64,000 nt of DNA. Origin: Escherichia coli (GTDB taxonomy: Bacteria; Pseudomonadota; Gammaproteobacteria; Enterobacterales; Enterobacteriaceae). Location of the stretch: NCBI GenBank assembly GCA_025336685.1, contig GCA_025336685.1_4717.1, one strand, 5' to 3'. The notes under the pieces were generated by a model. That model ran no database searches. It was given only the letters and a program-made list of their open reading frames with translations, and was not told the DNA's origin. The number at the start of each line of letters is the position of its first letter. Position 1 is the stretch's first letter. This document shows positions 8,861 through 55,287 of this stretch, piece after piece. A program made the translations under genes and the position numbers.

Positions 8861-11419
8861 TTACTGCTCTTCACGTTCCAACAGATACTCGGAAGCGGTA
8901 ATACCGTTTACCGTACGTACCGCTTTCAGACGAGTATCGTCACTCAGAATCACGGTAACAGACTGCAGACCTTTTACTTTGGTCTCGAAGGTCTTGAATA
9001 CCTGATCCAGCATACGAGCAATGCTTGGGTTGGTTGCAGCCGATGCGTGAGTGTAACCGTTCTGGTTCAGCTTCAGAATCTTGGCGTTGGTTGGTACACG
9101 AAGAACAACATGCGGACGCATTGCGAACACACTGTGGTTAAACCAGTAAGCATCGTTACTATCTTCGTCAGTGACGATGTCTGGATTAACACGCATGTCT
9201 TCGGTAGCCGCACCCGCCAAACGACGTTCGATTTCGTCAGCATCCAGAGAGCCGTCCTTCTCCAGTTCTGCACGATACTCACTCATGGCAACCAGATGAC
9301 GTTCACGATTCGCTGCAGATTTTTCGTGAGCGGCTTTCAGGTAGTCATGCATGTTGTACAGTTCTGCCATGGAAAGACGAATGTTCCACTGACCTTCGCC
9401 GTCACGATTGCAGTAGAGACACTTCAGCATGTTGACCCAGGTGTAGTAGCAATTGGAGAACTCATCTTCAATGAACTTCTGATCCATTTTAAGATCGTGA
9501 ATCAGCCAACCGGACAGTTCTCCGATATCATCAACGAAGCTAGAAATGGTGGTTTCAGAGAAGTTCTTCGGTACGATACGTTTGATCAGCTTGTTAACGT
9601 CTTTGGTCATGCTATCATTCAGGAAATGCCAGATACGCAGAGGAATGACATCACGATACTGTTGCATGATCTGACGATAAGCTTTGATATCGTCGCTACG
9701 ACCTTTATCAATAGACAACGCGTCCAGGAATTCATGGATAGCATCCAGCTCTTTGTCGGTATAGGTTCCCAGATAGGAATTGACCGTGGCAAGGAATGCT
9801 AATGCGTCGTTTTGGTTGACGTCGGTGTTGGTCTGCTGAATGATCGCTACTGCAGCTTTGGTTTCAGCATCCTCAACGCTTGACGCTGCGATTGCGTCGG
9901 TAACAGTAAACAGTTTCATTTCGCGCTGTTCGCCGACAACGATCGGTTCGCGTTGAACCGGTTTGTTAAGACTAACGCGAACAACTTCTGCTTGCGCGAT
10001 ACGATCCAGTTTTACCATTTCCTGCTCCGCCATACGACGAGCGGTCGGATCTGATTCAAGTTCGATGTATTCCACTTCTTCCTCCGTGAGGGATGTAATG
10101 TCAACAATGGTTTCATGAAGAATTCCGTTTTCGTCGATACGTGCTCGACGAGCGAAGTGTCTGAAGTCATACAACGTTGGCCAGCGACAATTAGGCGCAT
10201 AGTCTTTGGCCTTCAGACGCATCTGCATAAATTCTTCATGTTGAACAACACGACCGTAACGCTTAGCATCTTCGGTCGCATCAATTGGATTAACGGTCTT
10301 TGTTACCGTAGCAGAACGAGCCGTACGAATGGGTTCCGGTTTAGTCTGCACTGGTTCAGGTTGAACGGATTTCTGTTGTCCAGCCTTAACATGCCATTCG
10401 GGTTCTTCGTACCGTTCAGCAAATTGCTCGGCTGCTGCAAAGATATCATTGATACCACCAATATCTCCTTCTGGATTCGTCGAATATATCCGTGGTTGCG
10501 GTGCCTCGTAACGCGGCGCTGAGGTAGCAGATGCGTCGTTAACGACAGGATCGTCATCGCCAACATCATACAAACGGTTGAACGCACAATCCTTCGAATC
10601 GATGTACGATGGAGTTTGTGGTTGGATAACCGTCGGTCGAGGCTGTGCGCCGTATCCCGGCATTGTTGGAGCCATACCACGCATAACTGCTGGGTTAGGT
10701 TGGTATTGTGGTTGTGGGTAGGTTCCGCCATACGTGGGATATGCAGGCTGTTGCGGTTGACCGTACCCACCACCAACCATCGCATTTGCTTGCGGTCCAC
10801 GGTAAGTCATCCCCAGTTGCATCACCTGTTGCTTCAGACCGCGGGACTTCTGCGCTATTTGTGCTAGACTCCCACTTTTATTTAGCTGCGTGTACTTATT
10901 CGCGGCTTCCGGGTTAATGCGCGATAATTCAATCGCACGATAATACTCCGGGTATTGATTGGCTTCAAAGAGCCACGTTACAAGGTGATACAGCGCAACT
11001 GTGCTCACAGCAGCAGAGACGATCTGGTCGTTGGACGCATTCTGCGGCATCGGGTTGATGTAAGAGAATACGTTCCAGCAACAGTCTTCAACAAGCGATT
11101 CCATCATCATGTCGTTATTGGTGTAACGTGAGACGAACTCGGTTTGTATTTTATCCTGTTGGGCGAAGTCTTTCAGGACATTGAAGACAGCTTGACGGAT
11201 TTTGACGATCGTCGCTTCTTGGGTGATGAAGTTATAGTTCTGCTGATATGATGGTTGCTGGTACTGTGGTGGTTGATAGGTGTTATTCGGGTATGCGCTG
11301 TACTGCGGTTGCTGGTACTGTTGTTGGCGAACCTGTTCAGCCGCATAATTAATCGTACTCGCATAAGGGTTTTCGTTGTAGCCCATTTGCTGATACATGT
11401 TGTTACTGCCATTATACAT
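8861..11419 (-). CDS. large hypothetical protein with Q/Y/P/G-rich low-complexity regions (852 aa)
   Basis: ATG at 11419; N-terminal 60 aa and an internal segment are QQPQY/GYGQPQ-type low complexity. Confidence 0.85.
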   Translation of the reverse strand: MYNGSNNMYQQMGYNENPYASTINYAAEQVRQQQYQQPQYSAYPNNTYQPPQYQQPSYQQNYNFITQEATIVKIRQAVFNVLKDFAQQDKIQTEFVSRYTNNDMMMESLVEDCCWNVFSYINPMPQNASNDQIVSAAVSTVALYHLVTWLFEANQYPEYYRAIELSRINPEAANKYTQLNKSGSLAQIAQKSRGLKQQVMQLGMTYRGPQANAMVGGGYGQPQQPAYPTYGGTYPQPQYQPNPAVMRGMAPTMPGYGAQPRPTVIQPQTPSYIDSKDCAFNRLYDVGDDDPVVNDASATSAPRYEAPQPRIYSTNPEGDIGGINDIFAAAEQFAERYEEPEWHVKAGQQKSVQPEPVQTKPEPIRTARSATVTKTVNPIDATEDAKRYGRVVQHEEFMQMRLKAKDYAPNCRWPTLYDFRHFARRARIDENGILHETIVDITSLTEEEVEYIELESDPTARRMAEQEMVKLDRIAQAEVVRVSLNKPVQREPIVVGEQREMKLFTVTDAIAASSVEDAETKAAVAIIQQTNTDVNQNDALAFLATVNSYLGTYTDKELDAIHEFLDALSIDKGRSDDIKAYRQIMQQYRDVIPLRIWHFLNDSMTKDVNKLIKRIVPKNFSETTISSFVDDIGELSGWLIHDLKMDQKFIEDEFSNCYYTWVNMLKCLYCNRDGEGQWNIRLSMAELYNMHDYLKAAHEKSAANRERHLVAMSEYRAELEKDGSLDADEIERRLAGAATEDMRVNPDIVTDEDSNDAYWFNHSVFAMRPHVVLRVPTNAKILKLNQNGYTHASAATNPSIARMLDQVFKTFETKVKGLQSVTVILSDDTRLKAVRTVNGITASEYLLEREEQ

Positions 11420-14932: not shown

Positions 14933-14960
14933 CTCCCCCAACCCTTACGGGCTGAGGGAG
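14933..14960 (-). terminator. imperfect GC-rich hairpin (CTCCC..CCC-TTAC-GGG..GGGAG) flanked by CATA/TATG, downstream of the capsid-candidate gene
   Basis: Inverted repeat read directly; same architecture as the other junction hairpins. Confidence 0.4.
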
Positions 14961-15057
14961 GCTGACTTATGTATCACGGTGCCGGATGAATGTCCGCAAT
15001 GAAACCATCCGCAACGTTGTCGTCAAGAATATCATCCAACGAAGCAGCTACGGTAGT

Positions 15058-17280
15058 TCAGTTAGTCTGAACAGGCAGCTTGATGTTTTCGGTGTAGACC
15101 TTACGCAGGTTCACAACGTTAATCAGACCCAGCAGCGGGCAGTTGTTAACGAAGCGGCAGCGAGGCTGAACCATGGTTTCTTTAGAAACCTGACCGTTAC
15201 GGGTAACCTGAGCAACAGATACCAGTTCCGGTACGTACAGGAACATACCGAAGGTCAGCGGATCCGGAGAACCCTGGATACCACGAGACAGGGTCACGAA
15301 GATCTTATCACGCAGCAGAACGTTCGGGTTATCTACAACCACGAAGTTGAAGCTTACACCAACGGTACGGAAATCACCATCGGTCTGCAGGAACTGCGGG
15401 ATGTAGTTGTCAGTTGCTACCACGCAACGCGGTTTCTCATCAGCGTTGGAAGACAGCAGCTGCAGAGCTGGCTGATAACCAGACTCGGAGTACATGCGAT
15501 ATGCCATCTCACGAATCACGTTCATGATCGCAGCGGACACTTCAGCACGACGTTCTGCAGTGGTGGTGCCCTGAACAGATTTCGCCAGGTCCAGATTGAT
15601 TTCTTCGAACCACGGACGGATCAGGTAACGACCGAAACCTTCGATCTGGATGTCACCGAACTGACGGAAGCGAGAGGTCGCAACCGCTTTCAGTGCATCT
15701 TTGTAGCTGAACAGTTTCTCAACCATCAGGTTGTCGAAACGTGCGTTAGCAGCTTGGATCAGAACGTCCAGGTCAGCAGCGTTTTCTTCCCAATCCAGCG
15801 GACGAGGAATGGAGAACGGAGCCAGCAGGCCGATTGCATAACGCTCTTGCTTCATGTTGAAGTCAAGGTGTTTACCACGTTCACGACGGTTGCTGTTGTT
15901 ACGGCGAATACGCAGTTCGTAACCAACCAGTTTGAAGCTCAGGTCGTCAGCCAGGTCTTTAAATTCTTGGCTCTTACGCGGCTGTTCGATGTTGTCCTGA
16001 TCAACCAGGCGATACAGTTCAGCGTTAGCACCGTTAACACGCAGACCTGCTTTCTCTACGTTGGAAGAACCGTAAACTTCGATAGCCAGCTGAGCAGCAG
16101 ATTTCGCATCGATGATGTCCTGCAGCGCTTCGGCTTTCGCACCTTTAACGTCAACGGTGTTCTCATCAACGAAGATGGAGTGGGTGTCGAACGCCAGGGT
16201 CATTTTGCGGAAGTCGCCTTCCAGGGATTTCTGGAAACCGTTGGTAATCAGACCGGATACGTCGAACGGAACGTAAGAGGTCTTGCTGTGCTTGGCTGAT
16301 TTGATTTCCACCAGGATTTTGGTCAGCGTGATCTGAGCATCCAGCGCATCGGTGTTGTCGCTGTAACCGTTAGCCAGAATGCTATCGTCTTCAGCGATAC
16401 CGATCATGTCGATCAGTTTATCAACAGCCAGGTAAGACGTTTTGTAAGTTACGCCTTTAATCTCGATGTCGCGCGGAGCAACGATAGTTTTGTCAACGAA
16501 GTACTGCGCGTTAGCATCGTCGGCACGATAGATCGGATGCAGATCGGTCACGTCGTTGGACAGAACGTCGTTGTACATGAACGCATCCAGCAGCGGACGA
16601 CGTACCCAATCAGCCGGAGTACCGTCAGCGTTACGACGCAGGTGGTTGAACACCAGCGGACGACGGAAAGATACGTCGTAACCGATCTGGTTCGGAGCCA
16701 GAACGATGGTGTTGTACAGTTCGTTACCCATGCGGCTCAGACGAGAAGCCTTCACGTTGAACACAACGGAGTACGGCATCATGTCACGCAGTTCTTTCTG
16801 GTCGTAGGACAGCTGAACCAGTTCTTCAGATTCGCAACCGCAGGAATCAGCAGCCATCATGACGAAGTTAGAGCTGTCAACTTCACGGCCAGACGGAGTG
16901 GTGCTGATGTTCATGGAACGTGCTTGTTTAGCATATTCTACCGGGTTGCCATGAGCCAGCATGATCAGTGCTGCTGCACGAGCCTGCTGTGCGTTCATGG
17001 TGAACAGCTGTTCTTCAATACGCTGCTTCTCTTCCGGAGTGGTGGTTTCGAAGCCCAGCATGGACAGAACCGGTTCTTCTGCTTTACGGATGTCGCTGCT
17101 GAAGCTCTTAACATCCATATCGTTAACCAGTTTGTCCATGGATTTGAAATCAACCTTAGAAGCAGATTCCATAGACAGGAAGGTGTTCTCCAGACCTTTG
17201 TCTGCTGGTTTGCTACCATTAGCGGTCAGGAACTGGCGAGTGGCCGCGACCTGTTGGCTAAGAAGGGTTTTATCATTCAT
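15058..17280 (-). CDS. candidate major capsid protein (740 aa)
   Basis: ATG with AAGGA SD; codon usage sharply optimised (CTG, CGT, GGT, ACC, AAC) relative to neighbours; size fits jumbo-phage capsid proteins; N-terminus has SME|S-type motifs; function by inference only. Confidence 0.85.
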   Translation of the reverse strand: MNDKTLLSQQVAATRQFLTANGSKPADKGLENTFLSMESASKVDFKSMDKLVNDMDVKSFSSDIRKAEEPVLSMLGFETTTPEEKQRIEEQLFTMNAQQARAAALIMLAHGNPVEYAKQARSMNISTTPSGREVDSSNFVMMAADSCGCESEELVQLSYDQKELRDMMPYSVVFNVKASRLSRMGNELYNTIVLAPNQIGYDVSFRRPLVFNHLRRNADGTPADWVRRPLLDAFMYNDVLSNDVTDLHPIYRADDANAQYFVDKTIVAPRDIEIKGVTYKTSYLAVDKLIDMIGIAEDDSILANGYSDNTDALDAQITLTKILVEIKSAKHSKTSYVPFDVSGLITNGFQKSLEGDFRKMTLAFDTHSIFVDENTVDVKGAKAEALQDIIDAKSAAQLAIEVYGSSNVEKAGLRVNGANAELYRLVDQDNIEQPRKSQEFKDLADDLSFKLVGYELRIRRNNSNRRERGKHLDFNMKQERYAIGLLAPFSIPRPLDWEENAADLDVLIQAANARFDNLMVEKLFSYKDALKAVATSRFRQFGDIQIEGFGRYLIRPWFEEINLDLAKSVQGTTTAERRAEVSAAIMNVIREMAYRMYSESGYQPALQLLSSNADEKPRCVVATDNYIPQFLQTDGDFRTVGVSFNFVVVDNPNVLLRDKIFVTLSRGIQGSPDPLTFGMFLYVPELVSVAQVTRNGQVSKETMVQPRCRFVNNCPLLGLINVVNLRKVYTENIKLPVQTN

Positions 17281-17304
17281 TGAAAGTATCCTTTACAGAA
17301 TTAA

Positions 17305-17314
17305 CTTATATAAG
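17305..17314 (-). promoter_or_regulatory. palindromic CTTATATAAG box about 25 nt upstream of the capsid-candidate start, putative promoter element
   Basis: 10-bp AT-rich palindrome in the 150-nt leader of the most codon-optimised gene. Confidence 0.3.
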
Positions 17315-17429
17315 TCGGTCGATAGACCATAGCGTACACGCGTGCATGCGCCACTATAGTATCAGTAAACACTTACCGTTATTGAGGTCGTGATACAACA
17401 CTAAAAATGCCGCATAACTTTTCCCTACG

Positions 17430-19726: not shown

Positions 19727-19758
19727 CCCTCCTCCAACCCGTAAGGGAAGGAGGAGGG
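19727..19758. terminator. junction hairpin CCCTCCTCC-AA-CCC-GTAA-GGG-AA-GGAGGAGGG between convergent genes
   Basis: Perfect 9+3 bp stem; A9 run 12 nt upstream gives a U-tract for the minus-strand transcript; followed by TTATG. Confidence 0.55.
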
Positions 19759-21215: not shown

Positions 21216-22118
21216 TTAGAAATTATTGCCGAACCGGTTATGGTTGTATGGTTGGTAGTGTCCGTAATTGCCTGGGAAGCCACCATACGTCGTAGGCTCC
21301 GGTTTAGGGACTTCCATAATCGGATTTTTAGAATTGATCGCCATCACGTAAAGGGTTACGGGTGATGCTGCGTGGCCCATTTCGACGACCACACGGCGGA
21401 TATAATCAATGTATGCTGTTATTGCAGGCGTCAGTTTGTCTCCTTCGGTAGTTATAACGGTGCCGTCGGAAAGAATCTCACGAACCGCGCACCATTTACC
21501 AAGATGAACTCCTTGCTGCGGCTTTACTCCAGCAGAGATAGAGAGATAGGTATCGTACGTCGTTTGATGATACGGATGACTATAAATAGATTCCGCTTTG
21601 TTTTCGTCTTTCCCTAAGTACTCGCCTTGCTTAGGAGTATGAGTTGATATCATATCGGTATTTTCCACGAATGTCTTTCCTTCGAGTTGTTTGATTAATC
21701 GTTTAACCGATTCAGTTATGTTGTTGTGTCTAGGGATCAGCTTTAAGTAAACAGTCGGTAACTGGATTGTTGACCCATCACTACTGCGCGGATAAGATAA
21801 TTTGTAAAACTGTTCAAAAATCCGCCGTAACGCTTCGTTGTCTGAAGTTGCCAATTTAACATAGGAGCATCGTCCTTTAGCATTGGGATTGTAGAGAAGG
21901 AGAATAACGTCTTCGTCAGTACGTGTATCCTGAGGATGACAAGCGATGTAGTGAATGGGAATAGCCGTATCTTTTTCGTCTCCCGGTTTGATAGACAATG
22001 AAAAATCATGAGTTTCTTTTAACGTTCGTAACGTGCAGGATGCGTCGTCACTATTAAGTAAGAACACACCGAAACGCACGCTTTCGTATGCTGACGGGTC
22101 GCGTATTAATAAGGTCAT
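21216..22118 (-). CDS. hypothetical protein, tandem paralog family with HP.H.TYD.YL motif (about 300 aa)
   Basis: ORF-track start 22196 is TTG; ATG at 22118 has AGGAG SD at 7 nt; shares HPYHQTTYDTYLSISAGV with 22204-22977. Confidence 0.8.
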   Translation of the reverse strand: MTLLIRDPSAYESVRFGVFLLNSDDASCTLRTLKETHDFSLSIKPGDEKDTAIPIHYIACHPQDTRTDEDVILLLYNPNAKGRCSYVKLATSDNEALRRIFEQFYKLSYPRSSDGSTIQLPTVYLKLIPRHNNITESVKRLIKQLEGKTFVENTDMISTHTPKQGEYLGKDENKAESIYSHPYHQTTYDTYLSISAGVKPQQGVHLGKWCAVREILSDGTVITTEGDKLTPAITAYIDYIRRVVVEMGHAASPVTLYVMAINSKNPIMEVPKPEPTTYGGFPGNYGHYQPYNHNRFGNNF

Positions 22119-22203
22119 GTTCGGCTCCTTGATTACGATAAGGATGATTGCGGTTTTGTGGTGCTGGTAGGGCCCTAAACAAAGGAACCCTACCAATATT
22201 AGG

Positions 22204-22977
22204 TTATTCAGGATCGGCGTAGAAATGGTGAGGATAGCCGGAGTACGATCCTGCGTTACCGGCTATGGATTCTTTCTGGGAATCGACGACGAGCGCATAG
22301 AACTGTCGGGAATTTGTTAGCGTTGAGAAATAAGCGGAAAGGACTTTTTCATTCAACGCATCGCAAGGTAGACAGGTGCGACCGCAAAACGTAACGATAC
22401 GGCCGTCAGGATAGATCTCACGAATCATTCTCCACTCACCGATATCCACTGGTGATGGTGCTGCTACACCACCTGTTATCGTTAAGTAACGATCGTACGT
22501 GGTATGGCATTCAGGATGAATATAGATCGGCTTGTTCGTTTCGACAGGTTCCGAAGTGTCTCGACGACTAAGGAGTTCAACGACTTCAAGATAAATCGTT
22601 GGTAGATCGCGGAGAATACCGGTGTTACGACGTTTCTTTGTGATTCGCGGACGAATCTCGTTAAGAGCGTATTCGAGCTTACGTTCAGCTTCGTACGCAT
22701 CGAGTTTTATTAGGTGGCCCGGTTCATCGGAATGATCCTGAGTTATGTAAACGAAATACGTGTTGTCTTTTGCAGCGCGAAAGATTCGAGCGACCTTAAA
22801 TGTTTCTACAGTGCGATAACCAAGGCGCGATTGATTTTCCACAGGAGAAAATATCCAATGTCGTCCTTCGTCCGCCCCAACAATTTCGTTGAAACTATCC
22901 GTTTGTTCTGGGACCTGGTAGTCAGCCATTAATGTATCAAGAGCGTCATCGGCCAGTTTGGTGTAAATATCTGTCAT
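22204..22977 (-). CDS. hypothetical protein, tandem paralog of 21216-22118 (257 aa)
   Basis: ATG at 22977 with GAGGA SD; HPECHTTYDRYLTITGGV motif. Confidence 0.8.
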   Translation of the reverse strand: MTDIYTKLADDALDTLMADYQVPEQTDSFNEIVGADEGRHWIFSPVENQSRLGYRTVETFKVARIFRAAKDNTYFVYITQDHSDEPGHLIKLDAYEAERKLEYALNEIRPRITKKRRNTGILRDLPTIYLEVVELLSRRDTSEPVETNKPIYIHPECHTTYDRYLTITGGVAAPSPVDIGEWRMIREIYPDGRIVTFCGRTCLPCDALNEKVLSAYFSTLTNSRQFYALVVDSQKESIAGNAGSYSGYPHHFYADPE

Positions 22978-23091: not shown

Positions 23092-23123
23092 CCCTCTCCC
23101 TTCCCTTACGGGTTGGGAGAGGG
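23092..23123 (-). terminator. junction hairpin CCCTCTCCC-TT-CCC-TTAC-GGG-TTG-GGAGAGGG
   Basis: Perfect inverted repeat immediately after the stop of 23128-24495; inverse orientation of the 37018 copy. Confidence 0.5.
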
Positions 23124-28432: not shown

Positions 28433-31400
28433 TTACTTGTAGGCACCACAATGTGCTTTGATGAGGAAAAGCACCGCTTGCATCGGTTTATTGAACTGTT
28501 GCCATAACGTCAATGCCGGATGGAACAACCAATCTTCCAGGCCAAGAACAATACCGTAGTTAACGACATTATTAACATCGTTCTCAACGTTGAGTTCGCT
28601 ATCCAGGAATTTATCGATTGAACGCAGGGCCTGCATGGCGTTGTCGGCAATAAGCCACGCTTCATGCGCTTCACGAGCCGCACGCAGCAATGCTTCCAGT
28701 TCGCCGGTGCTGGCTACCGGTAACTCCTCACTGGTGAGGTCGTCAGAAACCGTAAACTGACGGTTGATACCAGTGTAGATCCACTGCATCAGTTTCGCTG
28801 CTTCCTCGTTCGGGTTGTTACGCGTTGTCGCATAGGTCGCGCTCATTTTCACGATATGCGTTTCACCAAGATACGCTTTGGACCCAACGCCTTTACGATC
28901 GCTGTCTTTCCACGGTTGTACGGTAGCGACCATGAGCTTATCCCATTTCTGAATAGGAATACGCTTCAGACCAACAACCGATCCGGCGGATGTTTCGGAC
29001 TGGTTGCTCTTCCGCACTTCGCTGAGCTCACGATCGATAGCAACGATTAATTCACGCGTCATGTTACCAAGCATTTTGATTTCACCCAACGCAGCGATGA
29101 GCTTCTTCACATCGGTAATAGGTTCACCACCGATGGTAAGATGACGGATGAAACGTTTCAGAATAATCCGTTCTGCTGCTGGGTTACCACGACGCGCTTT
29201 AGCCAACGCTTGCTGTGTTTCGGCGAACAGCTTATCCCATGGAGCCGTAGCGGCGGTATAGTAACGGTGGTTGGTTTCAATCCAGTTACCGATACGGTTG
29301 ACCGCACTCTTAACGGTATCCATGAACCCTTCCATCGCAATTTCGGTGGCTTCGACGTTACCCTGGAAGTTATCAGGACCGATCTCGCGTGCCGCTACCA
29401 GAATACCTTCCACTGCACTCACCGCGTGACGACCGATAGCCAGATTTCGCTGCGCTTCTTCAGCACGCTCAACGAATTCCACTACCGCAGGATCGTCAAC
29501 GATTTCCGCCTCGGCAACAACACGTGTACCTGCATCGCCTTCCAGTGTCTCGATAGTGACAACCGGATCGTTTTCACCAGCAACATCCTGGTACTCTTCC
29601 TGTTTGAGTTCGCCGTTATCGGCCGCTGCGACAGCGGTGAGTATACGGACGGTAACATCACCGAGTTCTTTCGCAGCGAATCCGTAGACGGTACATGCTG
29701 TTGTCGCAAAGTTCATCAGTGTGCGTGTGCGTTTAACGATGTAGCCAACGCCGTAGTCACTACCGTTCTTATCGATGTCGCGGATTAACCGTTCAGCTGT
29801 CTCCTGAAGTTGTGTAGCTGCTTTCAGAAGGTCTTCGTCAAACAGTTTCGTTGACGCATCGATCAGCATATCGACGCTAACGTTAGACGGTACGGCATCA
29901 TCCTGCTGTTTCATGGCGCTAAGTTCATCACGGAACTTACGAATACCGTCTAAAGCGGCGTCGGCGCTATGTCCGAACGCGGCCACGCCAGACATTGTTG
30001 TTGCTGTCAGCATGTCCGTATCAGCGTTTGGACTTTCGCCTTCTTTAAGATCCTTCAGCTGGTCGAAGAACTTACGGGATGCTTCAGCGATACGTTTGCT
30101 GTCTTTTACCGCGTTTACGATTTTATCAACCGATTTAGCGTCGTTCGCAAGCAGCGTGTCGAGTTTGTTCCATTCGATGTCGACTTTCTTTTCATCCGAA
30201 GTATTACTCGGTGGAGGAAGCAGTTTCATCACTGGTGCTGTGCGTTGTTCTTTGGTGAGCTTACCAGCCTTCTCTTCGATTTTCTTTTTATTAACACCGA
30301 AAAGTTTTCTTAGGCGTGCCACGATTGCTTTTAAGAACTTCACAACCGCTTCGTAAACCGATTTCAGAATCTGTTTAAAGCGACCTGGCTGCTTTTCCCC
30401 GTCTTCCAGATTGAGATCGCTATTTAGTGCGATATCAAGCTGTTTGTACGATTCCATGATGTATTCGTCTTTGATTTCAGGACGAATCTCGAAGCTTTCC
30501 ATCGGACCCTCAGCCGGACGGAATTCCATTTTCAGTTCGCCTTGCAGAGTAGGGTCGACAATGGCGATAGCTTCACCCTGACCATCAGCGTTAAAGCGCT
30601 CAGCGTAACGAGTACGACGAACAATAACACTCTTATCCCCATCAAGACGACGTACCACCATGGTGCCAGGAATGTACGGTTGTTCTGTTTCAATGACGGT
30701 TACATCTGTTTCACCTTCACCGAGAATAACAGAAGTGCGCTGTTCAACAACAGGAACATCTAATACACCGCGGGCTTCCAGCTCTTGATGAATTTCGAAC
30801 GACTCTTGTTTCAGATCTTCATCTTCTTCGTTTTCGTCGTCTTCATCGTCACCTTTGGTGGTTTTGGTGTCGGTAGCATCAGCATCCGTGTCTGCGTTGG
30901 TAGCTTCTTCGGACGCAGGTTCGGTGGTGCCGTCCTCGGTAGGCGTTTCATCAGCGTTATCGACGTCAACATCACCTTGCAGTTCTGTTTCCTGAGCAAC
31001 TGCTTCGGCTTTCTGCTCACCGGTGTTACCGTCATTAGCGTCGACAGCAGGTTGTTCGTCAGCGACGGTATCTTCAACCTTTTCTACTTTCTCCACGACA
31101 CGTTTAATCACGGTGACTTTGATGGGTTCTTCCGTTGTTTTGGTTTCTGGTGTTGCGTCGGCTACCGCAGGTGCTGTTTCAACAACAGGTTCTGCTTTTT
31201 CCGGTTCGACGACACTACCTTTAACACCTTCGGTGGTTTCTGCAGGTTGCGCTGCCTGTTCGATTTGTGCCGGATTGGTCGGATCGATGGCATTAGCCGC
31301 ATCCTGAATCTTGTTCTTCAGGTTGTCACGGTCAGCGCTAACGGTCGGGTCATTGGTCACTTTCGGTGCCGGTGTTTCGGTCGGCGCGTTTGCCGGATAC

Positions 31401-31798
31401 GGGTTCTTCGGCTCTTCACCAGGTGCGGTTGGTACCGCGATCAGAACGAACGGTTGAACATCGTTACCGTCTTCCATGGTCACGCCACCGTTGCTCGGCG
31501 TGAAACGGATTCGCAAGCTACCATCAATAGGACGGGTAACAATAACAGCACGTACGACATCCTCACCGTTTTCATCCGTGCTACGAATCACACGAACGGC
31601 GTCATCAACAGTAGCCCCTTCCTCGAGCGTATCTGATTCGATCGTCGCTTCGATGCTGTCTGGTCGTGCCGCTGTAGGTAATGCGATCACTTGCTCTTCT
31701 TTATCGGTAGAAAGCGTTGCTTTGACTTCGATAGGTGTATCGCCGCTTTCCAGGTTAAGATGCGACTTACGCATCAGATCAGCTAACGATTTTTTCAT
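28433..31798 (-). CDS. very large hypothetical virion-associated protein with internal duplication and acidic T/D/E-rich linker (1121 aa)
   Basis: ATG at 31798 with GAGGAA SD; repeated RxxIVxRxxDG..R(I/M)xFxP segments; contains MESFE/IMESY motifs shared with the head-internal paralogs. Confidence 0.9.
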   Translation of the reverse strand: MKKSLADLMRKSHLNLESGDTPIEVKATLSTDKEEQVIALPTAARPDSIEATIESDTLEEGATVDDAVRVIRSTDENGEDVVRAVIVTRPIDGSLRIRFTPSNGGVTMEDGNDVQPFVLIAVPTAPGEEPKNPYPANAPTETPAPKVTNDPTVSADRDNLKNKIQDAANAIDPTNPAQIEQAAQPAETTEGVKGSVVEPEKAEPVVETAPAVADATPETKTTEEPIKVTVIKRVVEKVEKVEDTVADEQPAVDANDGNTGEQKAEAVAQETELQGDVDVDNADETPTEDGTTEPASEEATNADTDADATDTKTTKGDDEDDENEEDEDLKQESFEIHQELEARGVLDVPVVEQRTSVILGEGETDVTVIETEQPYIPGTMVVRRLDGDKSVIVRRTRYAERFNADGQGEAIAIVDPTLQGELKMEFRPAEGPMESFEIRPEIKDEYIMESYKQLDIALNSDLNLEDGEKQPGRFKQILKSVYEAVVKFLKAIVARLRKLFGVNKKKIEEKAGKLTKEQRTAPVMKLLPPPSNTSDEKKVDIEWNKLDTLLANDAKSVDKIVNAVKDSKRIAEASRKFFDQLKDLKEGESPNADTDMLTATTMSGVAAFGHSADAALDGIRKFRDELSAMKQQDDAVPSNVSVDMLIDASTKLFDEDLLKAATQLQETAERLIRDIDKNGSDYGVGYIVKRTRTLMNFATTACTVYGFAAKELGDVTVRILTAVAAADNGELKQEEYQDVAGENDPVVTIETLEGDAGTRVVAEAEIVDDPAVVEFVERAEEAQRNLAIGRHAVSAVEGILVAAREIGPDNFQGNVEATEIAMEGFMDTVKSAVNRIGNWIETNHRYYTAATAPWDKLFAETQQALAKARRGNPAAERIILKRFIRHLTIGGEPITDVKKLIAALGEIKMLGNMTRELIVAIDRELSEVRKSNQSETSAGSVVGLKRIPIQKWDKLMVATVQPWKDSDRKGVGSKAYLGETHIVKMSATYATTRNNPNEEAAKLMQWIYTGINRQFTVSDDLTSEELPVASTGELEALLRAAREAHEAWLIADNAMQALRSIDKFLDSELNVENDVNNVVNYGIVLGLEDWLFHPALTLWQQFNKPMQAVLFLIKAHCGAYK

Positions 31799-31813
31799 AA
31801 AGCGTTATTCCTC

Positions 31814-32920
31814 TTAAAAGTAATATTTCAGCGCCTCGCGAGAGACATCAAGCATAGCCGCCGTTGAATTCGTAAAGAACTCGGCATAGCCCACAAGCGG
31901 CACCTTGATCCACGCGGTATACGCTGTAAGGTATCGAGAAAGGGCTACCATAGCATCATCAGAAGCAGTAGTAACTGACAACTGACCTTGTTGACGATAA
32001 ACGTCGTTAAGTTTCGCTTGTAGATTCCCTGCAATTTCGAGTAACTCGTTGGCGTACTTTTTACGATGGTAACTAACCAGCAAATCAACGCCCGTATTCA
32101 CAGACTCGAGCAACACACCAACTTGTTCTAATGTTGGCATTGTAACCACCATATCCCGTTCAATGGACGGCACATCCTGGACTTCAAACCGTGCGGATTG
32201 AATAGCGAGGGATTGTTGAATTGAACCAGAACCTGAGGTGGTAACCTGATCGAGTCGTAGCGTACGGTTGCCCAGTAACGTTACGTTGACAAGTCTCGAT
32301 TCGTTCAGCGTACTGTAGACTTTATGCAATAACGTATACGCATCACGATTAATCACATCGATTAATGCGGTATCCGTCTGTTTTAAGATAATGTCGAGTG
32401 CTCTATCTAACGTATTAGCGAACTGCTTGAAATCATCACGGAATGACGAAGACAAGAGATATTCGGCGATTGCCAAATTCTGTTTGTATAGCGTATTCCC
32501 GGTTGTGAAATCGAACCCAAAACTGTTCCCATACCGTAGGTGCGGAGCCAACGTCGACGTAGCTTCGAAGCTTTGCGCGATAGGTTTACGACCAACGGCT
32601 TTTGTGTAGTGACGGCGGATGTTACTGAGTTCGAGTTGTAGTGCGCGACTACGATCGATAAACCGTGCGATAAACGCAGTAATGTTCCGCAACGTTGTCC
32701 AGATTGCATCGATGATAGCTTTGATGATTTTCATCGCAAGCTGATTGTACGATTCCATCGTGAGGAGATCAGCACTTTCTGTGGTATAACCGGTCGTCGG
32801 AATACCGCCCGCTTGCTGATAAATAAGCTGATGAATTTGTCGTTGCGTTGCTGTCTCTGGCACAGGTAATGTCTTTAACAAGCTTAACGCTTGAATCTGT
32901 CCGTCATAGGTCTGCGGCAT
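31814..32920 (-). CDS. hypothetical protein with LTMESY motif (about 368 aa)
   Basis: ORF-track start 32971 overlaps upstream gene by 68 nt; ATG at 32920 has GAGGAA SD at 8 nt. Confidence 0.8.
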   Translation of the reverse strand: MPQTYDGQIQALSLLKTLPVPETATQRQIHQLIYQQAGGIPTTGYTTESADLLTMESYNQLAMKIIKAIIDAIWTTLRNITAFIARFIDRSRALQLELSNIRRHYTKAVGRKPIAQSFEATSTLAPHLRYGNSFGFDFTTGNTLYKQNLAIAEYLLSSSFRDDFKQFANTLDRALDIILKQTDTALIDVINRDAYTLLHKVYSTLNESRLVNVTLLGNRTLRLDQVTTSGSGSIQQSLAIQSARFEVQDVPSIERDMVVTMPTLEQVGVLLESVNTGVDLLVSYHRKKYANELLEIAGNLQAKLNDVYRQQGQLSVTTASDDAMVALSRYLTAYTAWIKVPLVGYAEFFTNSTAAMLDVSREALKYYF

Positions 32921-34205
32921 TGCTGGTTTCCTCAAGTTCGAGATGCGCATCAAGATAATCATTAAGACCATCGATGACGTCGCAGACAGTTAACAGGAAT
33001 CGGGCAAAAGCGACCGCCTGGAAGCCGACGACGTTACGCGCGATACCTACACGTTGAACGATAGCGGATGATGCGGTATCGTTGTTATCCATCTGTTGTA
33101 GTAAACGCTCGTAAGGTTGAATCCATTCGTCCTGGTCGGCAAGGCTTGCTTCAAGACAACGTTTAAATTCCAACTGTCGTAGCGTAGACCATAATGTACT
33201 TAATGCGTTGATGATCGCGTTGGTTCCGTCGATAACATCGTTTAACGGTAAGAAACGGAATCCGTCTTTTGCTGATTGGAAAGGTACAGCTTCCCACACA
33301 ACGCTGAACTGCGTTCCTGATGTGTCTTCGATGTTGTGTAATTTAAGGTAGGAAGCACCAACAGGAACGTCAACGACCAGATCGTCTGTTCCGGTAGGTG
33401 TTAACGGCTTCTCGCATAACGCATCGTTGATGACCTCGAGAATATTCTCCCAACAGGCTTCGTTTTCTGCAGCGATACCTTCTTTGTTATCCACTGATGG
33501 TGCTTTTAGTAGCTGCATTAATAACGGATCGAGTTGACGATGCCATGTTGCGAGTATCCCTGTGTTCGTTACGATGTTTTCTGCGGTTTGTTGTAAATCA
33601 GCAATACTGCTTACCGCACCGCCTTTCGGATGAAGATATCGCCAATTGTAAGGAAAGTTCTCCCAGAATGCGTTATCTTCATTAACATCGTATTCAGAAA
33701 TAGTTTTCAACGCAGCCGCTTTCTTTAATAACGGCTTCACCTGACGAACGAATCGACGATAACAGCGATTGCAGATATCGATCGCGTAGCGGTATAACTC
33801 GTTCATGTAAAGCCATAATGCACGGGTTGCTTCTTTTGCGGTCTTGTCAAAACTTTCCATGTTCAAGCTCATCCCGCTGGAAGTTTCCTCTTCCATACCT
33901 TCGATGATGTGGTTTGGATCCATCCCCATCCCGGCTGCTGCGGTCGATGCGATATGTTTGATCGTGCTGATATCGCGTTCTTCAGCCTCAGTCATATCTG
34001 GGATAATATCCAACCTGAGTTTATTTAATGTTTGAAGGTGTTGTTCACCTTCTTTCATCACCATGTTTGTTTCGTCGATTGAGTGAAACTGGTTCTCAAT
34101 ATTACTGGCATCGAGAATATTGCCAGCGATACCGAACGATTCTACAGGTTCATCATCAATCCCTTGAAACAACGATGTCATGGGTTGTTGCAACACGTTT
34201 TCCAT
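32904..34205 (-). CDS. head-internal (inner-body-like) protein paralog (433 aa)
   Basis: ATG with AGGAG SD; acidic N-terminus, conserved ISTIKHIASTAAAGMG and NMESFDK segments shared with the three genes upstream. Confidence 0.85.
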   Translation of the reverse strand: MENVLQQPMTSLFQGIDDEPVESFGIAGNILDASNIENQFHSIDETNMVMKEGEQHLQTLNKLRLDIIPDMTEAEERDISTIKHIASTAAAGMGMDPNHIIEGMEEETSSGMSLNMESFDKTAKEATRALWLYMNELYRYAIDICNRCYRRFVRQVKPLLKKAAALKTISEYDVNEDNAFWENFPYNWRYLHPKGGAVSSIADLQQTAENIVTNTGILATWHRQLDPLLMQLLKAPSVDNKEGIAAENEACWENILEVINDALCEKPLTPTGTDDLVVDVPVGASYLKLHNIEDTSGTQFSVVWEAVPFQSAKDGFRFLPLNDVIDGTNAIINALSTLWSTLRQLEFKRCLEASLADQDEWIQPYERLLQQMDNNDTASSAIVQRVGIARNVVGFQAVAFARFLLTVCDVIDGLNDYLDAHLELEETSNAADL

Positions 34206-34311
34206 TTGGGACTCCTACGTAGGGAAATCTTGGCGGGTGATCATGTCCGCCATTTACCTTCTGAACCGTTGATTCAGAAGTCAAAAGATAACCGGATACC
34301 GGCGTCATAAA

Positions 34312-34343
34312 CCTTCCTCCTTCCCTTACGGGTTGGAGGAAGG
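34312..34343 (-). terminator. junction hairpin CCTTCCTCC-TT-CCC-TTAC-GGG-TTG-GGAGGAAGG
   Basis: Perfect inverted repeat after the stop of 34354-35643; flanked by CATAAA and TTATG. Confidence 0.5.
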
Positions 34344-34353
34344 GATAGGGTGA

Positions 34354-35643
34354 TTATGCTTTTTCGGTCGCTGCGTTGAAGTATTTCGCAGCAGCAAATA
34401 CAGCATCCGCATACTGACGTACAGAGGCACGGAGGATCTTAGTTCCTAATACAGAGCTTAAACGAGCCATTTCTGTTACAGCTGTGATATAAGGACGTAC
34501 GGTTTCACGATCAGCCTCAGGTAACTTGTCGAGCATTTCGCCCCACTTCGTTTTGATCTGCATTCCGTTGAGTTTAGCGTCTCGTCCTACAGAGCGCGCC
34601 AAACTTTCAACTTTATGCAAATACGTCGGTTCCACCATACGGAATGCCTTCAGATATGCAGTCAATGCGCTTTTCAGCTCATTCCCATCGTGGAAAATAT
34701 TCGCATTTTCGATTTTATCTGTTACGGTGTCAACAACTTCAATATGAACATCCTTCACCAAAGCACATGCTTTAACGACATCCTTCTCTTTTTCTAGCGC
34801 ATCCAACCCTTTAACGACATATTGTTTTCCACCACTTTCTGGAAGTCTGAACGCCCTCAGTGCGGCTTTAGTGGCCTGAAGATACTCGTCTAGGACACGA
34901 TCAAGCGTTGTTAAATCAGTTAGGACATTAATGTCGTAGTTGATATCGCCGATCTTAGTAAATAAGAAATCTGATATCGTCGCACTTGCAGCCAGTTGTT
35001 CGATATGTTTGCTAACGGATGCCGCATCAACAGATTTTGCGTTCGGGAACATATTAACCATATTCCCGGTAGGCTTCTCTAGTTGTTTGATCTGACGTTC
35101 CCCTTTATTGACTTCGGATGCAATTTTGGTGATCTCAGCATAAGCCAGAACGAGATTCTTGAACAACATCTGGAACAGTTTGAACAGTTGCTCAGCAATA
35201 TTTGCAATGATTACCCAAACTGCGTATAACGCTTGTGCTGCGCGTTCTTTAAAGCCTTCCAGTACGATAGCCTGTCCTTCCACTAATTTATCATTAGCCT
35301 GGAACATGTCTTCATCAGACATCCCCAGGTTTGCTGCTGATGTCGAAGCGATCTGACGGATAAGTGCGACGTCGCTCACACGTGCTTCCGAGATCGTTGG
35401 TGCGATCATGTACGCTGTATCTTCCAGCGTTGCTGAGGTACGCACTGCAATTTCAGCCAGTTCGCTGGATTCATCGATTGTCTCGTCGGTATGTCGAATC
35501 ACCAACTCAACTTCACCCTCTTCAATTTCTGCGTTAGGATCGTGTTGCTCCGTCGGAATCGTCGCGAGAAGATCTTCGGCGCTGAGCAATGCGAGTTCGA
35601 ATGCGTTTTTATTGACGTTGTCAAAAAGAGAAATACGTGCCAT
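34354..35643 (-). CDS. head-internal (inner-body-like) protein paralog (429 aa)
   Basis: ATG with AGGAA SD; VSDVALIRQIASTSAANLG and IVLEGFK segments. Confidence 0.85.
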   Translation of the reverse strand: MARISLFDNVNKNAFELALLSAEDLLATIPTEQHDPNAEIEEGEVELVIRHTDETIDESSELAEIAVRTSATLEDTAYMIAPTISEARVSDVALIRQIASTSAANLGMSDEDMFQANDKLVEGQAIVLEGFKERAAQALYAVWVIIANIAEQLFKLFQMLFKNLVLAYAEITKIASEVNKGERQIKQLEKPTGNMVNMFPNAKSVDAASVSKHIEQLAASATISDFLFTKIGDINYDINVLTDLTTLDRVLDEYLQATKAALRAFRLPESGGKQYVVKGLDALEKEKDVVKACALVKDVHIEVVDTVTDKIENANIFHDGNELKSALTAYLKAFRMVEPTYLHKVESLARSVGRDAKLNGMQIKTKWGEMLDKLPEADRETVRPYITAVTEMARLSSVLGTKILRASVRQYADAVFAAAKYFNAATEKA

Positions 35644-35652
35644 GTTAGTTCC

Positions 35653-36969
35653 TTAACCTTTGGTATAGGCTTTAACGAGAGTGTTGATAAATGAAGTCAG
35701 TGCGCGAAGATACTGGTACGCGAACTGGTTTTCAATACGGTTCTCTTTACCGCAAAGCAGAATCGCGCGCTTAACGAGCTTAGGATAGATCTCGATGTAC
35801 GGTTGGTAGCTTGCATCAAAATTCTGCTCGTTGAAGCGTTTCATGGTGATTTCCTGGATACGCTCCATGGTGCGAATTTTATTGCGAGAGAATATCTCAG
35901 AGAAAGCACGTCCGCGTTTTGTTACCATCAACAGATCTTTCGCGAACGTCAGTTGTCGAACGCTACGCAAATCGTCAGGTGTTGGTAGGACGTACGTTTC
36001 TGGATCGTTATCCCATTCAACATCTTCAACGACAATATCCAAGTCGAGGTAACGTTTAACAGCATCGATGATATTGTCTTTTGACGCATCGAATTCTTTC
36101 AAGAAGACTGCGCCGTTGATGTAGCGGATACGTTTTCCGGAAACCGTTGGGGTGATAACGTCAGCACCTTCCACAGAACCACGATTTTCCAGCGTCGATT
36201 TGACAGCGTTCAAGAAAGTCAGATAATCAACGGGAAGTTTTTCAACCTTATCTAAATGGAAGTCGATGATGTTTAATCCTAACCCATCAATAACTGAATA
36301 ACCGTCCGATTTAAGGAACATCTGATTGAAGGTATCGATGTTGCTTTTCAGCGTGTCTACACCACCAACGTTGTTACGGTTAGGGAAAAGTGTTCGCCAC
36401 TCTGCTTTAAACGCGACCTCTTTATTTTCCGTGTATTTGCCTTTGGGCATTTGTTCGAGGGCTGCAATAGCTTTCTGAAAATTGCGTGTCTCGTCATAAA
36501 CAAGATGGGTAAGCTTCTCGAAGGCTGCTGCCAGAGTCAGGGCAATATCAACGATGATATCCCAGATCTTTTTCATGGCTTTTACAACGGTGTCTTTAAA
36601 CCCTTCAACAACCAAAGCTTCTCCAATCTCAACACGGTCGGTTGGAGTCAGCAATGCTTCGGAGGGCAAGCCCAAAGCAATCGATGCGGATTCTTGAATG
36701 TTACGAACCAACGCAACATCACTGTAGTTAGCCGATTCGATAGTCGGGGCAACATCAAAACTGATTTCCCGCAGTGCTTCAACAGCAGGGAAAGCACGAT
36801 CAAGTGCATCTTCATGTTCGTCGATTGTCGCCAAACGTAACTCAACACCATCAGCATCGATGACTTCAGCGGTAGGCTCCACAGCAAGCGCTTCAGCAAC
36901 AATAGGATCTTTTTCAAACGCTTCGAGGCTGATATCGCCTTGGGTCGCAAATAGCGGTATGTGTACCAT
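35653..36969 (-). CDS. head-internal (inner-body-like) protein paralog (about 438 aa)
   Basis: ORF-track start 36993 is TTG; ATG at 36969 has GGAGA SD at 7 nt; YSDVALVRNIQESASIALG and LVVEGFK segments. Confidence 0.85.
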   Translation of the reverse strand: MVHIPLFATQGDISLEAFEKDPIVAEALAVEPTAEVIDADGVELRLATIDEHEDALDRAFPAVEALREISFDVAPTIESANYSDVALVRNIQESASIALGLPSEALLTPTDRVEIGEALVVEGFKDTVVKAMKKIWDIIVDIALTLAAAFEKLTHLVYDETRNFQKAIAALEQMPKGKYTENKEVAFKAEWRTLFPNRNNVGGVDTLKSNIDTFNQMFLKSDGYSVIDGLGLNIIDFHLDKVEKLPVDYLTFLNAVKSTLENRGSVEGADVITPTVSGKRIRYINGAVFLKEFDASKDNIIDAVKRYLDLDIVVEDVEWDNDPETYVLPTPDDLRSVRQLTFAKDLLMVTKRGRAFSEIFSRNKIRTMERIQEITMKRFNEQNFDASYQPYIEIYPKLVKRAILLCGKENRIENQFAYQYLRALTSFINTLVKAYTKG

Positions 36970-37017
36970 GTGTTGTCTCCAGTAATGATTCAAAAGATAA
37001 ACCTGAGCGGCATAGAA

Positions 37018-37049
37018 CCCTCTCCCAACCCGTAAGGGAAGGGAGAGGG
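37018..37049 (-). terminator. junction hairpin CCCTCTCCC-AA-CCC-GTAA-GGG-AA-GGGAGAGGG
   Basis: Perfect inverted repeat after the stop of the codon-optimised 441-aa gene; flanked by CATAGAA and AATATG. Confidence 0.55.
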
Positions 37050-37071
37050 AATATGTCAGTTTATTAACTGA

Positions 37072-38397: not shown

Positions 38398-38422
38398 AAT
38401 TTGTTTCCTTTACAATAAATTG

Positions 38423-38438: not shown

Positions 38439-38461
38439 GCTTAAGTGAGCCATTAGCCCAC

Positions 38462-40121: not shown

Positions 40122-40133
40122 GACTTTCACGTG

Positions 40134-55277: not shown

Positions 55278-55287
55278 TGATGCTCCT

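Follow-up and report, generated by a model that had tools for sequence, protein, structure and literature searches.

Codon usage of highly expressed Escherichia coli genes in two head protein genes of a Goslar-type jumbo phage

The DNA analyzed here, a single stretch of 64,000 nucleotides that we refer to as the window, is 92–97.5% identical to Escherichia phage Goslar (vB_EcoM_Goslar), a nucleus-forming jumbo phage. Goslar is the closest relative of the window phage and infects E. coli. At 92–95% nucleotide identity over the window, the window phage represents a separate isolate or species. It has a 1.7-kb insertion relative to Goslar, and several genes that are whole in Goslar are split. The frameshift sites, which include 39654–40160 and 54183–54262, may be errors of assembly. 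Collinearity with Goslar holds across the window at the cluster of PF12699 genes described below. The features on which our analysis centers are listed here, with the codon adaptation index (CAI) and related measures where they apply.

15058–17280, minus strand: major capsid protein (MCP) gene, 740 aa, homolog of Goslar gp41 (Pfam, PDB, CAI)
37072–38397, minus strand: internal head protein (IP) gene, PF12699 (phiKZ_IP), 441 aa, homolog of Goslar gp58 (Pfam, CAI)
28433–31798, minus strand: gp53 homolog, 1121 aa, assigned to PF12699 by Basu et al., intermediate bias (CAI 0.531, z = 5.9)
58978–59616, minus strand: gp77 homolog, capsid decorator protein, intermediate bias (CAI 0.597, Nc 39.9, z = 4.5)
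38989–39465, minus strand: C-terminal fragment of a disrupted gp60 homolog (CAI 0.482, Nc 52.3)
62396–64000, plus strand: partial gp81 homolog (PHROG 4585; CAI 0.480, Nc 45.3, z = 2.6)
17289–17297, minus strand: TGTAAAGGA, ribosome-binding motif 8 nt upstream of the MCP ATG (sequence motif)
38406–38414, minus strand: the same motif, 8 nt upstream of the IP gene ATG (sequence motif)
14935–14962, minus strand: stable terminator-like hairpin, some 95 nt past the MCP stop codon (−27.9 kcal/mol, z = −5.7)
37010–37045, minus strand: stable terminator-like hairpin just downstream of the IP stop codon (−35.6 kcal/mol for a 91-nt stretch, z = −5.8)
14986–16299, plus strand: mirror open reading frame (ORF) of 437 aa, a by-product antisense to the MCP gene (codon-aligned antisense frame)
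16537–17283, plus strand: second mirror ORF antisense to the MCP gene, 248 aa, a by-product in the same frame as 14986–16299
37243–37695, plus strand: mirror ORF of 150 aa, a by-product antisense to the IP gene (codon-aligned frame)
37888–38418, plus strand: mirror ORF of 176 aa, a by-product antisense to the IP gene (antisense analysis)

The 740-aa protein matches Pfam family PF25620 PhiKZ_MCP (1.6e-217; 724.1 bits, cutoff 27; profile positions 2–635 of 635) and PHROG 3231, 'major head protein' (6.5e-165). It is 98.5% identical in amino acid sequence to Goslar gp041 (97.5% in nucleotides), near-identical over residues 1–740 to PDB 11bt, and aligns with PDB 36za from residue 158 on; PDB 8y6v (PhiKZ gp120) is matched at 3e-55. 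The capsid proteins in 11bt and 8y6v are described as canonical HK97 folds, and the mature Goslar MCP chain (36za) begins at residue 158, residues 1–157 having no density (Basu et al. 2026, bioRxiv 10.64898/2026.04.21.720040). These matches to solved structures bear out the HK97-like fold proposed for the protein in a first-pass annotation of the window, and identify 15058–17280 as the gene for a PhiKZ-type HK97-fold MCP.

The 441-aa protein belongs to PF12699 (71.1 bits, cutoff 27; profile positions 6–385 of 387), matches PHROGs 5750 and 2497, 'internal head protein', and shares 97.5% amino acid identity with Goslar gp058. A search of solved structures with this protein gave no meaningful match (best E = 0.84). 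The adjoining gene at 35653–36993 also passes the family threshold (27.7 bits, cutoff 27), and 31814–32971 scores under it (16.8 bits). The gp53–gp58 cluster of Goslar is syntenic with PhiKZ (Basu et al. 2026), and the 441-aa gene accordingly lies in a tandem PF12699 cluster that is syntenic with PhiKZ gp92–97. Pfam searches with other raised-CAI or inserted ORFs of the window returned nothing above threshold.

Codon adaptation was computed against 31 E. coli K-12 ribosomal-protein and elongation-factor genes. The MCP gene reaches a CAI of 0.805 (Nc 30.5) and the IP gene 0.770 (Nc 31.7), against a window median of 0.40 (MAD 0.042; 54 genes of at least 100 codons) and values of 0.36–0.46 for same-strand flanking genes. 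The comparison with neighbors suggested in the first-pass annotation thus upholds its view that these two genes are set apart. When codons were redrawn from pooled window usage with the protein sequence of each gene held fixed, their excess corresponded to z = 21.7 (MCP gene) and 14.1 (IP gene), with 5.9 for the next-best gene in the window; with GC3 fixed as well, z was 14.7 and 10.6, respectively. GC3 is 0.587 in the MCP gene versus about 0.48, and in the IP gene it equals the window average (0.484). An earlier description of both genes as using a short list of codons almost exclusively holds in the MCP gene for CTG (96%); the other listed codons are genuinely preferred but predominate rather than exclude (AAC 93%, CCG 82%, GGT 79%, ATC 79%, CGT 78%, GAA 77%, ACC 70%), and 16 of the 61 sense codons are unused. 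The bias is even along both genes, including the presumably cleaved N-terminal region of the MCP, with less optimized first 60 codons (0.65 in the MCP gene, 0.67 in the IP gene). Sharp bias of this kind is confined to two of 57 genes in the window and five of 232 in Goslar.

The same extreme bias had also been attributed to the partial gene at 62396–64000 and to 38989–39465. This does not hold, as both lie slightly over the window median. Nor is 38989–39465 an intact gene: it encodes the C-terminal 158 aa (residues 143–300) of a homolog of the 300-aa gp060 and matches PHROG 3187 at profile positions 156–298 of 301. By tblastn, the whole gp60 homolog spans 38989–39882, its upstream half broken by small deletions.

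The codon choice of the two genes is that of highly expressed enterobacterial genes. Correlating RSCU with that of E. coli ribosomal-protein genes gives r = 0.97 for the MCP gene and r = 0.94 for the IP gene; the remainder of the window gives 0.67. The CAI of the MCP gene equals those of E. coli fusA (0.80) and tufA (0.84), with other E. coli genes at 0.29–0.54. Across 77 species, the fit was best for Enterobacteriaceae (r = 0.95–0.976) and dropped for Morganellaceae, Pasteurellales and Orbales, with values of 0.18–0.58 for Pasteurellales, Orbales and reduced-genome endosymbionts. The preferences therefore best fit core Enterobacterales without singling out a genus. The earlier suggestion that codon usage hints at an enterobacterial host agrees with this, and with the host of Goslar.

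Near-total avoidance of three codons also accounts for the long mirror ORFs. TTA, CTA and TCA are together represented by a single codon in the MCP gene, and likewise in the IP gene, which clears the antisense frame of stops. ORF 14986–16299 terminates at the reverse complement of the sole TCA in the MCP gene (codon 328, 16297–16299), and 16537–17283 opens at the first start codon past this single antisense stop; 37243–37695 terminates at the reverse complement of the sole TCA in the IP gene (codon 235, 37693–37695). Recoding the MCP gene with its own codon usage yields a mean of 1.0 antisense stops, where 1 is observed; recoding with rest-of-window usage yields 24.9 for the MCP gene and 10.8 for the IP gene. 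Open antisense stretches of 413 and 234 codons are observed versus recoded means of 600 and 349, and 81–86% of recodings produce a stretch of equal or greater length. The bias is thus sufficient to produce the mirror ORFs, as the first-pass annotation had proposed for the pair opposite the MCP gene.

Information on protein abundance comes from published virion mass spectrometry of Goslar rather than of the window phage, with an LFQ error of about ±50%: the MCP is present at 1,615 modeled copies per virion, gp58, which is injected into the host, at about 2,150, gp23 at about 2,144, gp214 at about 865, and gp81 at about 22 (Basu et al. 2026). The MCP, gp58 and gp23 are the top three Goslar virion proteins by copy, and, counted in residues per virion, gp41 comes first and gp58 second, making them the largest translation loads; gp23 is encoded outside the window. 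The genes gp41 and gp58 are orthologs of the two window genes, with equal length, synteny and near-equal CAI (0.804/0.792 in Goslar versus 0.805/0.770). The claim that the two genes mark the most abundant virion proteins is consequently supported through Goslar, and the 441-aa window protein, being 97.5% identical to gp58, would likewise be packaged in high copy and injected.

In the Goslar genome, the MCP and gp58 orthologs rank first and second in CAI among 232 ORFs. Values over 0.70 are found for gp41, gp58, gp23, gp214 and chimallin, the next ORF being at 0.586 and the median at 0.377. CAI correlates with log LFQ abundance across 105 Goslar virion proteins (r = 0.68, p = 2e-15), and its relation with copies and with copies × length is similar (r = 0.66–0.68). 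Because chimallin, a nuclear shell protein that is not part of the virion, reaches 0.70, high CAI appears to track translation demand and not virion membership. Most structural genes are mildly raised at most, the tail sheath and tail tube having CAIs of 0.55–0.56. The capsid decorator gp77 is estimated at about 430 copies by LFQ and was modeled at 60 (Basu et al. 2026). Exceptions to the trend are gp158 (about 926 copies, CAI 0.44) and the gp38 homolog (8861–11419; CAI 0.52, about 25 virion copies). The best Pfam match of the latter, to Cas9_C_2, is sub-threshold (17.8 bits, cutoff 27), and we regard it as noise.

A graded relationship is also evident within one family. Goslar gp53 is present at about 330 copies and gp54–57 at about 46–70 (Basu et al. 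2026). Set against these numbers, the CAI of the PF12699 paralogs in the window is 0.32–0.46 for those at 46–70 copies, 0.53 at 330 and 0.77 at 2,150, such that the tandem paralogs behave as an internal dose series.

The two genes share features at their ends. The 9-mer TGTAAAGGA occurs three times in the window (chance expectation 0.49), each time 7–8 nt before an ATG, and is conserved in Goslar ahead of gp041 and gp058. The hairpin at 14935–14962 has the 3′ arm GGGTTGGGGGAG, part of a motif seen five times at gene ends, and that at 37010–37045 has the 3′ arm GGGTTGGGAGAG. A further hairpin, at 38437–38470, flanks the IP gene on its other side. Scans for sigma-70 promoters and intrinsic terminators around both genes found nothing over shuffled expectation. 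These scans carry little weight either way, since chimalliviruses have their own RNA polymerases.

We consider it very likely that translational selection on the genes in highest demand explains both the bias and the mirror ORFs. Per particle, the largest amounts would be needed of the MCP (740 aa, 1,615 copies) and of the dominant PF12699 protein (441 aa, about 2,150 copies), if, as we infer, abundances in the window phage equal those in Goslar. A tRNA scan of the window found no tRNA genes, so the bias is not explained by tRNAs encoded there, and the host presumably supplies the tRNAs that read its genes. Selection for rapid, economical translation would then favor the synonymous codons used by E. 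coli ribosomal-protein and elongation-factor genes, and lower-copy genes would remain near the mutational baseline of the phage. Direct evidence for purifying selection on synonymous sites is weak: dS versus Goslar is low in the MCP gene (0.085) and the IP gene (0.133), the median being 0.195, yet CAI and dS are uncorrelated over 46 genes (rho = 0.00). Values of dS range from 0.05 to 0.96 across genes, probably as a result of mosaicism.

Other origins of the bias deserve consideration. Codon usage unlike that of flanking genes, together with the elevated GC3 of the MCP gene, could indicate that both genes arrived recently, whether from an enterobacterial genome or from a different phage, and retain the usage of their donor. 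Both, however, are members of families specific to chimalliviruses (PF25620 PhiKZ_MCP and PF12699 phiKZ_IP) and lie inside a conserved syntenic block of head genes common to PhiKZ, and the GC3 of the IP gene is that of the window. Average E. coli genes, moreover, have CAIs well short of 0.8, so that only highly expressed donors would fit, and the bias is common to other high-copy Goslar genes scattered around the genome. We therefore reject horizontal transfer, to which we give almost no credence. Causality might instead run from the opposite strand, with the antisense ORFs (437 and 248 aa over the MCP gene, 150 and 176 aa over the IP gene) being real overlapping genes whose maintenance constrains sense codons. 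Their openness nevertheless equals what sense codon usage alone predicts, and their translations are of low complexity, enriched in V, F, Q, N and T. Such a constraint would demand avoidance of TTA, CTA and TCA only, leaving unexplained the preferences for CGT over CGC, GGT over GGC, AAC over AAT and TTC over TTT (r = 0.97). This possibility is effectively refuted, its probability being negligible.

Selection need not act mainly through elongation speed or ribosome economy. The bias could serve mainly mRNA stability (codon optimality), translational accuracy or co-translational folding of proteins prone to assemble, or avoidance of A/U-rich targets of host RNases or RNA-targeting defenses. Both genes look like discrete units, and their common ribosome-binding motif and strong 3′ hairpins fit selection on whole mRNAs; their first 60 codons are also less optimized. 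The sequence pattern expected under these explanations is the same, and they are compatible with translational efficiency; the graded link to copies and to copies × length is, however, what demand-driven selection predicts, and we think it unlikely that they are the main cause.

We speculate, with considerable doubt, that codon optimization in Goslar-type chimalliviruses acts as a quantitative dosage code. In combination with the shared TGTAAAGGA-N8-ATG initiation region and the 3′ hairpins, it might help set the roughly 40-fold range in PF12699 paralog stoichiometry (about 50 versus about 2,150 copies), via translation or mRNA stability. If this were true, the stoichiometry of virions and nuclear shells in uncultured jumbo phages could be predicted with nothing more than CAI, which could also flag proteins in very high demand (gp214) or abundant outside the virion (the gp38 homolog). 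As it stands, the window offers a worked example in which per-gene CAI recovers the most abundant proteins of a jumbo phage from sequence alone and points to the order of its host. Applied to the annotation of uncultured jumbo phages, this could single out the major capsid protein and the dominant internal proteins and reduce the range of likely hosts. Nothing new emerges in the way of mechanism, gene or system; annotations existed for both genes, and the structure of one product has been solved.

Host-codon bias in heavily translated phage genes is already known and ordinary, with T4 gene 23 and T7 gene 10 as classic examples. It has been documented since at least 2008, when an excess of host-preferred codons was reported for phage head proteins (Lucks et al. 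2008, PLoS Comput Biol, PMC2266997). A literature search on codon adaptation in jumbo phages found no directly relevant paper, and the word 'codon' occurs 0 times in the Goslar structure paper. PhiKZ gp120 belongs to the same family as the window MCP, with an HK97 fold and a cleaved N-terminal region, and the PhiKZ inner-body proteins gp93–gp97 share the PF12699 family and the syntenic block. In PhiKZ, several PF12699 paralogs each reach about 100–200 copies; in Goslar-type phages a single paralog dominates, and it is on this paralog that the strong codon bias in the window sits. The window genes pass the same tests as the phage structural genes of Lucks et al. 2008, but their contrast with the surrounding genes is unusually sharp and limited to a handful of genes.

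Two head-protein genes in the window stand apart from the rest in their codon usage.

15058-17280, minus strand: major capsid protein (MCP) gene, 740 aa, homolog of Goslar gp41
37072-38397, minus strand: internal head protein (IP) gene, 441 aa, homolog of Goslar gp58

Using weights from 31 E. coli K-12 ribosomal-protein, EF-Tu, EF-G and RpoA genes (5,222 codons), we scored the codon adaptation index (CAI) of 57 window ORFs. The MCP gene reached 0.805 (Nc 30.5) and the IP gene 0.770 (Nc 31.7), against a window median of 0.40 (MAD 0.042; 54 genes of at least 100 codons) and values of 0.36, 0.43, 0.46 and 0.40 for their immediate same-strand neighbors. When synonymous codons were redrawn from pooled window usage with the protein sequence fixed, the two genes gave z = 21.7 and 14.1, respectively, and the next-highest gene 5.9; when each third position also had to keep its G/C class, z was still 14.7 and 10.6. 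The bias spans the whole length of both genes, including the later-removed part of the MCP, and is somewhat weaker in their first 60 codons. The MCP codon table bears out the preferences listed in the first-pass annotation (CTG 96%, AAC 93%, CCG 82%, GGT 79%, ATC 79%, CGT 78%, GAA 77%, ACC 70%), and 16 sense codons are never used. That annotation had named four host-optimized genes, an observation confirmed only in part, since the MCP and IP genes share the strong bias and the other two do not: the partial gene at 62396-64000 (gp81 homolog) scores 0.480 (z = 2.6) and the ORF at 38989-39465 scores 0.482. Nor is the latter intact, as had been supposed; it covers residues 143-300 of Goslar gp60, and the gp60 homolog here, which small deletions interrupt, runs on to 39882.

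The 740-aa protein matches Pfam PF25620 (PhiKZ_MCP, 724 bits), PHROG 3231 ("major head protein") and PhiKZ gp120 (8y6v, 3e-55), and differs hardly at all from the Goslar major capsid protein, whose structure is solved (PDB 11bt; PDB 36za, which begins at residue 158). Given the account of that structure by Basu et al. (bioRxiv 10.64898/2026.04.21.720040), this match upholds the HK97-like fold anticipated for it. The 441-aa protein matches PF12699 (phiKZ-like internal head proteins; 71 bits, cutoff 27) and is 97.5% identical to Goslar gp58; its gene is the last in a tandem series of PF12699-type paralogs (gp53-gp58 homologs, 28433-38397).

Copies per virion in Goslar are about 2,150 for gp58, about 2,144 for gp23, 1,615 (modelled) for the MCP, about 926 for gp158, about 865 for gp214, about 330 for gp53, about 141 for gp60, about 46-70 for gp54-57 and about 22 for gp81 (Basu et al., 10.64898/2026.04.21.720040). 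The proposal that the two genes encode the most abundant virion proteins is supported, and their Goslar orthologs rank first and second by residues translated per virion (gp41, 1.20 million; gp58, 0.95 million; gp23, 0.39 million). In a Goslar genome reassembled from annotated pieces, 5 of 232 ORFs exceeded a CAI of 0.70 (gp41, 0.804; gp58, 0.792; gp23, 0.727; gp214, 0.726; chimallin, 0.702); the sixth-ranked value was 0.586 and the median 0.377, and the tail sheath and tail tube reached only 0.55-0.56. Three of the five lie outside the window:

Goslar 16862-17404: gp023, DUF7941, about 2,144 copies
Goslar 201334-201813: gp214, unknown function, about 865 copies
Goslar 171003-172898: gp246, chimallin, nuclear shell protein

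Across 105 quantified Goslar virion proteins, paired with ORFs by mass, CAI correlated with log abundance (r = 0.68, p = 2e-15; Spearman 0.58). PF12699 paralogs in the window follow Goslar copy number likewise, with CAI of 0.32-0.46 at about 46-70 copies, 0.53 (gp53) at about 330 and 0.77 (gp58) at about 2,150. Because chimallin, which is non-structural, falls in the same CAI class, these data support a refinement, namely that strong bias signals how much of a protein must be synthesized and not whether it is part of the virion. By codon usage, gp214 ranks as a very-high-demand protein. Separately, the gp38 homolog (8861-11419, 852 aa) has a raised CAI (0.517, z = 4.2), although the copy estimate for Goslar gp38 is low, about 25 per virion; this protein may be made in quantity in the cell and little packaged. 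A family search with it returned only a sub-threshold Cas9_C_2 match.

Set against E. coli ribosomal-protein genes, RSCU gave correlations of r = 0.97 for the MCP gene and 0.94 for the IP gene, versus 0.67 for the remainder of the window. S10/spc ribosomal-protein operons fetched for 80 species yielded codon tables for the 77 with enough codons:

Enterobacteriaceae: r = 0.95-0.976 (E. coli 0.969)
Erwiniaceae, Pectobacteriaceae, Yersiniaceae: r about 0.90-0.97
Morganellaceae: r = 0.71-0.85
Pasteurellales, Orbales, reduced endosymbionts: r = 0.18-0.58

The enterobacterial host hinted at from raw sequence is therefore the best fit among these 77 species; the codon signal is right for core Enterobacterales, without the power to resolve genus.

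Plus-strand ORFs mirror both genes (14986-16299 and 16537-17283 over the MCP gene; 37243-37695 and 37888-38418 over the IP gene) and might be taken for overlapping antisense genes. Both ORFs over the MCP gene occupy the antisense frame in register with the gene, where each codon is the exact reverse complement of a sense codon and a stop needs a sense TTA, CTA or TCA. One of 740 MCP codons is of this type (TCA, codon 328, 16297-16299), as is one of 441 IP codons (TCA, codon 235, 37693-37695); the remaining antisense and off-frames contain 11-64 stops. Recoding with rest-of-window usage gave 24.9 (MCP) and 10.8 (IP) antisense stops, with the longest stop-free runs at about 106 and 120 codons. 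Because recoding with each gene's own usage alone predicts a mean of 1.0 antisense stop for each protein, we reject overlapping antisense genes; as first suggested, the bias explains the mirror ORFs, which, including those over the IP gene, are its passive by-products.

The flanks of the two genes also share elements. The 9-mer TGTAAAGGA lies 8 nt before both ATGs and has three copies in the window (0.49 expected), each sitting 7-8 nt ahead of the ATG for a very abundant head protein:

17289-17297, minus strand: upstream of the MCP ATG
38406-38414, minus strand: upstream of the IP ATG
51412-51420, minus strand: 7 nt ahead of the gp66 homolog ATG; protein very abundant by LFQ

It is conserved before Goslar gp41 and gp58 and may mark a strong region of translation initiation that these genes have in common. 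Strong hairpins follow both genes, and the 3' arm GGGTTGGGRGAG has five matches in the window (0.22 expected), all at gene ends:

14933-14944, minus strand: just downstream of the MCP gene
19729-19740, minus strand: gene end
23110-23121, plus strand: gene end
37020-37031, minus strand: just downstream of the IP gene
45281-45292, minus strand: gene end

Two folded hairpins of this family are very stable (z about -5.7 to -5.8). These recurring intergenic hairpins are probably phage terminators or 3'-stabilizing elements; the Goslar annotation marks no hairpin elements at the matching sites. An additional hairpin lies between the gp59 homolog and the RBS of the IP gene. Together, motif and hairpins suggest that the MCP and IP genes are discrete expression units.

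Translational selection on the highest-demand phage genes is the best supported mechanism. A tRNA scan found no tRNA genes in the window, whose genes therefore presumably depend on the host tRNA pool; translational selection for host-preferred codons is documented in phage head genes (Lucks et al. 2008, PMC2266997). Horizontal acquisition of the two genes is rejected because both families are chimallivirus-specific, both genes sit inside a conserved syntenic block and the GC3 of the IP gene is average. Selection via mRNA stability, accuracy or folding is inseparable from elongation efficiency by sequence alone. Synonymous divergence (dS) from Goslar is low in both genes, at 0.085 (MCP) and 0.133 (IP) against a median of 0.195, but a genome-wide CAI-dS relation is absent.

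Nucleotide identity to Escherichia phage vB_EcoM_Goslar is 97.5% for the MCP gene and 92-95% across the whole window, which is collinear with Goslar 28.4-92.4 kb. The window therefore represents a close relative of this jumbo phage, a nucleus-forming member of the Chimalliviridae that infects E. coli. A 1.7-kb insertion (21249-22972) without Goslar counterpart holds two ORFs of low CAI (0.348), neither with a match in a Pfam search:

21216-22196: 326 aa
22204-22977: 257 aa

In place of the Goslar gp069 NUMOD1/HNH endonuclease region (81.2-83.9 kb), the window has 54456-55779. Indels of 1-2 nt relative to Goslar are numerous, with about 15 small deletions inside 500 bp at 39654-40160 and further sites at 54183-54262, 584-670, 17814, 43375 and 44625-44748; the homologs of gp60, gp61, gp63 (now three ORFs), gp42, gp32 and the gp68 DNA polymerase are fragmented by them. 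Since several of these genes encode essential structural proteins, the clustering of deletions has the look of poor assembly rather than of true pseudogenes. Three genes diverge from Goslar as outliers: the gp56 homolog (34354-35643, PF12699-type; 75.5% aa, dS 0.96; neighboring paralogs 95-97% aa, dS 0.13-0.20), the vertex-binding-complex gp65 homolog (48172-50967; 85% aa, dS 0.51) and the ORF at 56475-56975 (81% aa). Such divergence points to mosaic recombination or to rapid evolution of certain internal head proteins.

That codon usage in phage head genes is adapted to the host is textbook knowledge, and the MCP and IP genes are already annotated, one with a solved structure and both with measured copy numbers; the first-pass annotation drew a good inference from sequence alone, and its finding, though correct, is an ordinary one. 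As codon usage is not a topic of the Goslar structure paper (Basu et al., 10.64898/2026.04.21.720040) and we found no codon-adaptation study of jumbo phages in the literature, the quantitative CAI-stoichiometry relation is a small, useful add-on rather than a discovery. On this scale the MCP gene is on par with E. coli fusA (CAI 0.80) and tufA (0.84), whereas ordinary E. coli genes at that locus score 0.29-0.54.
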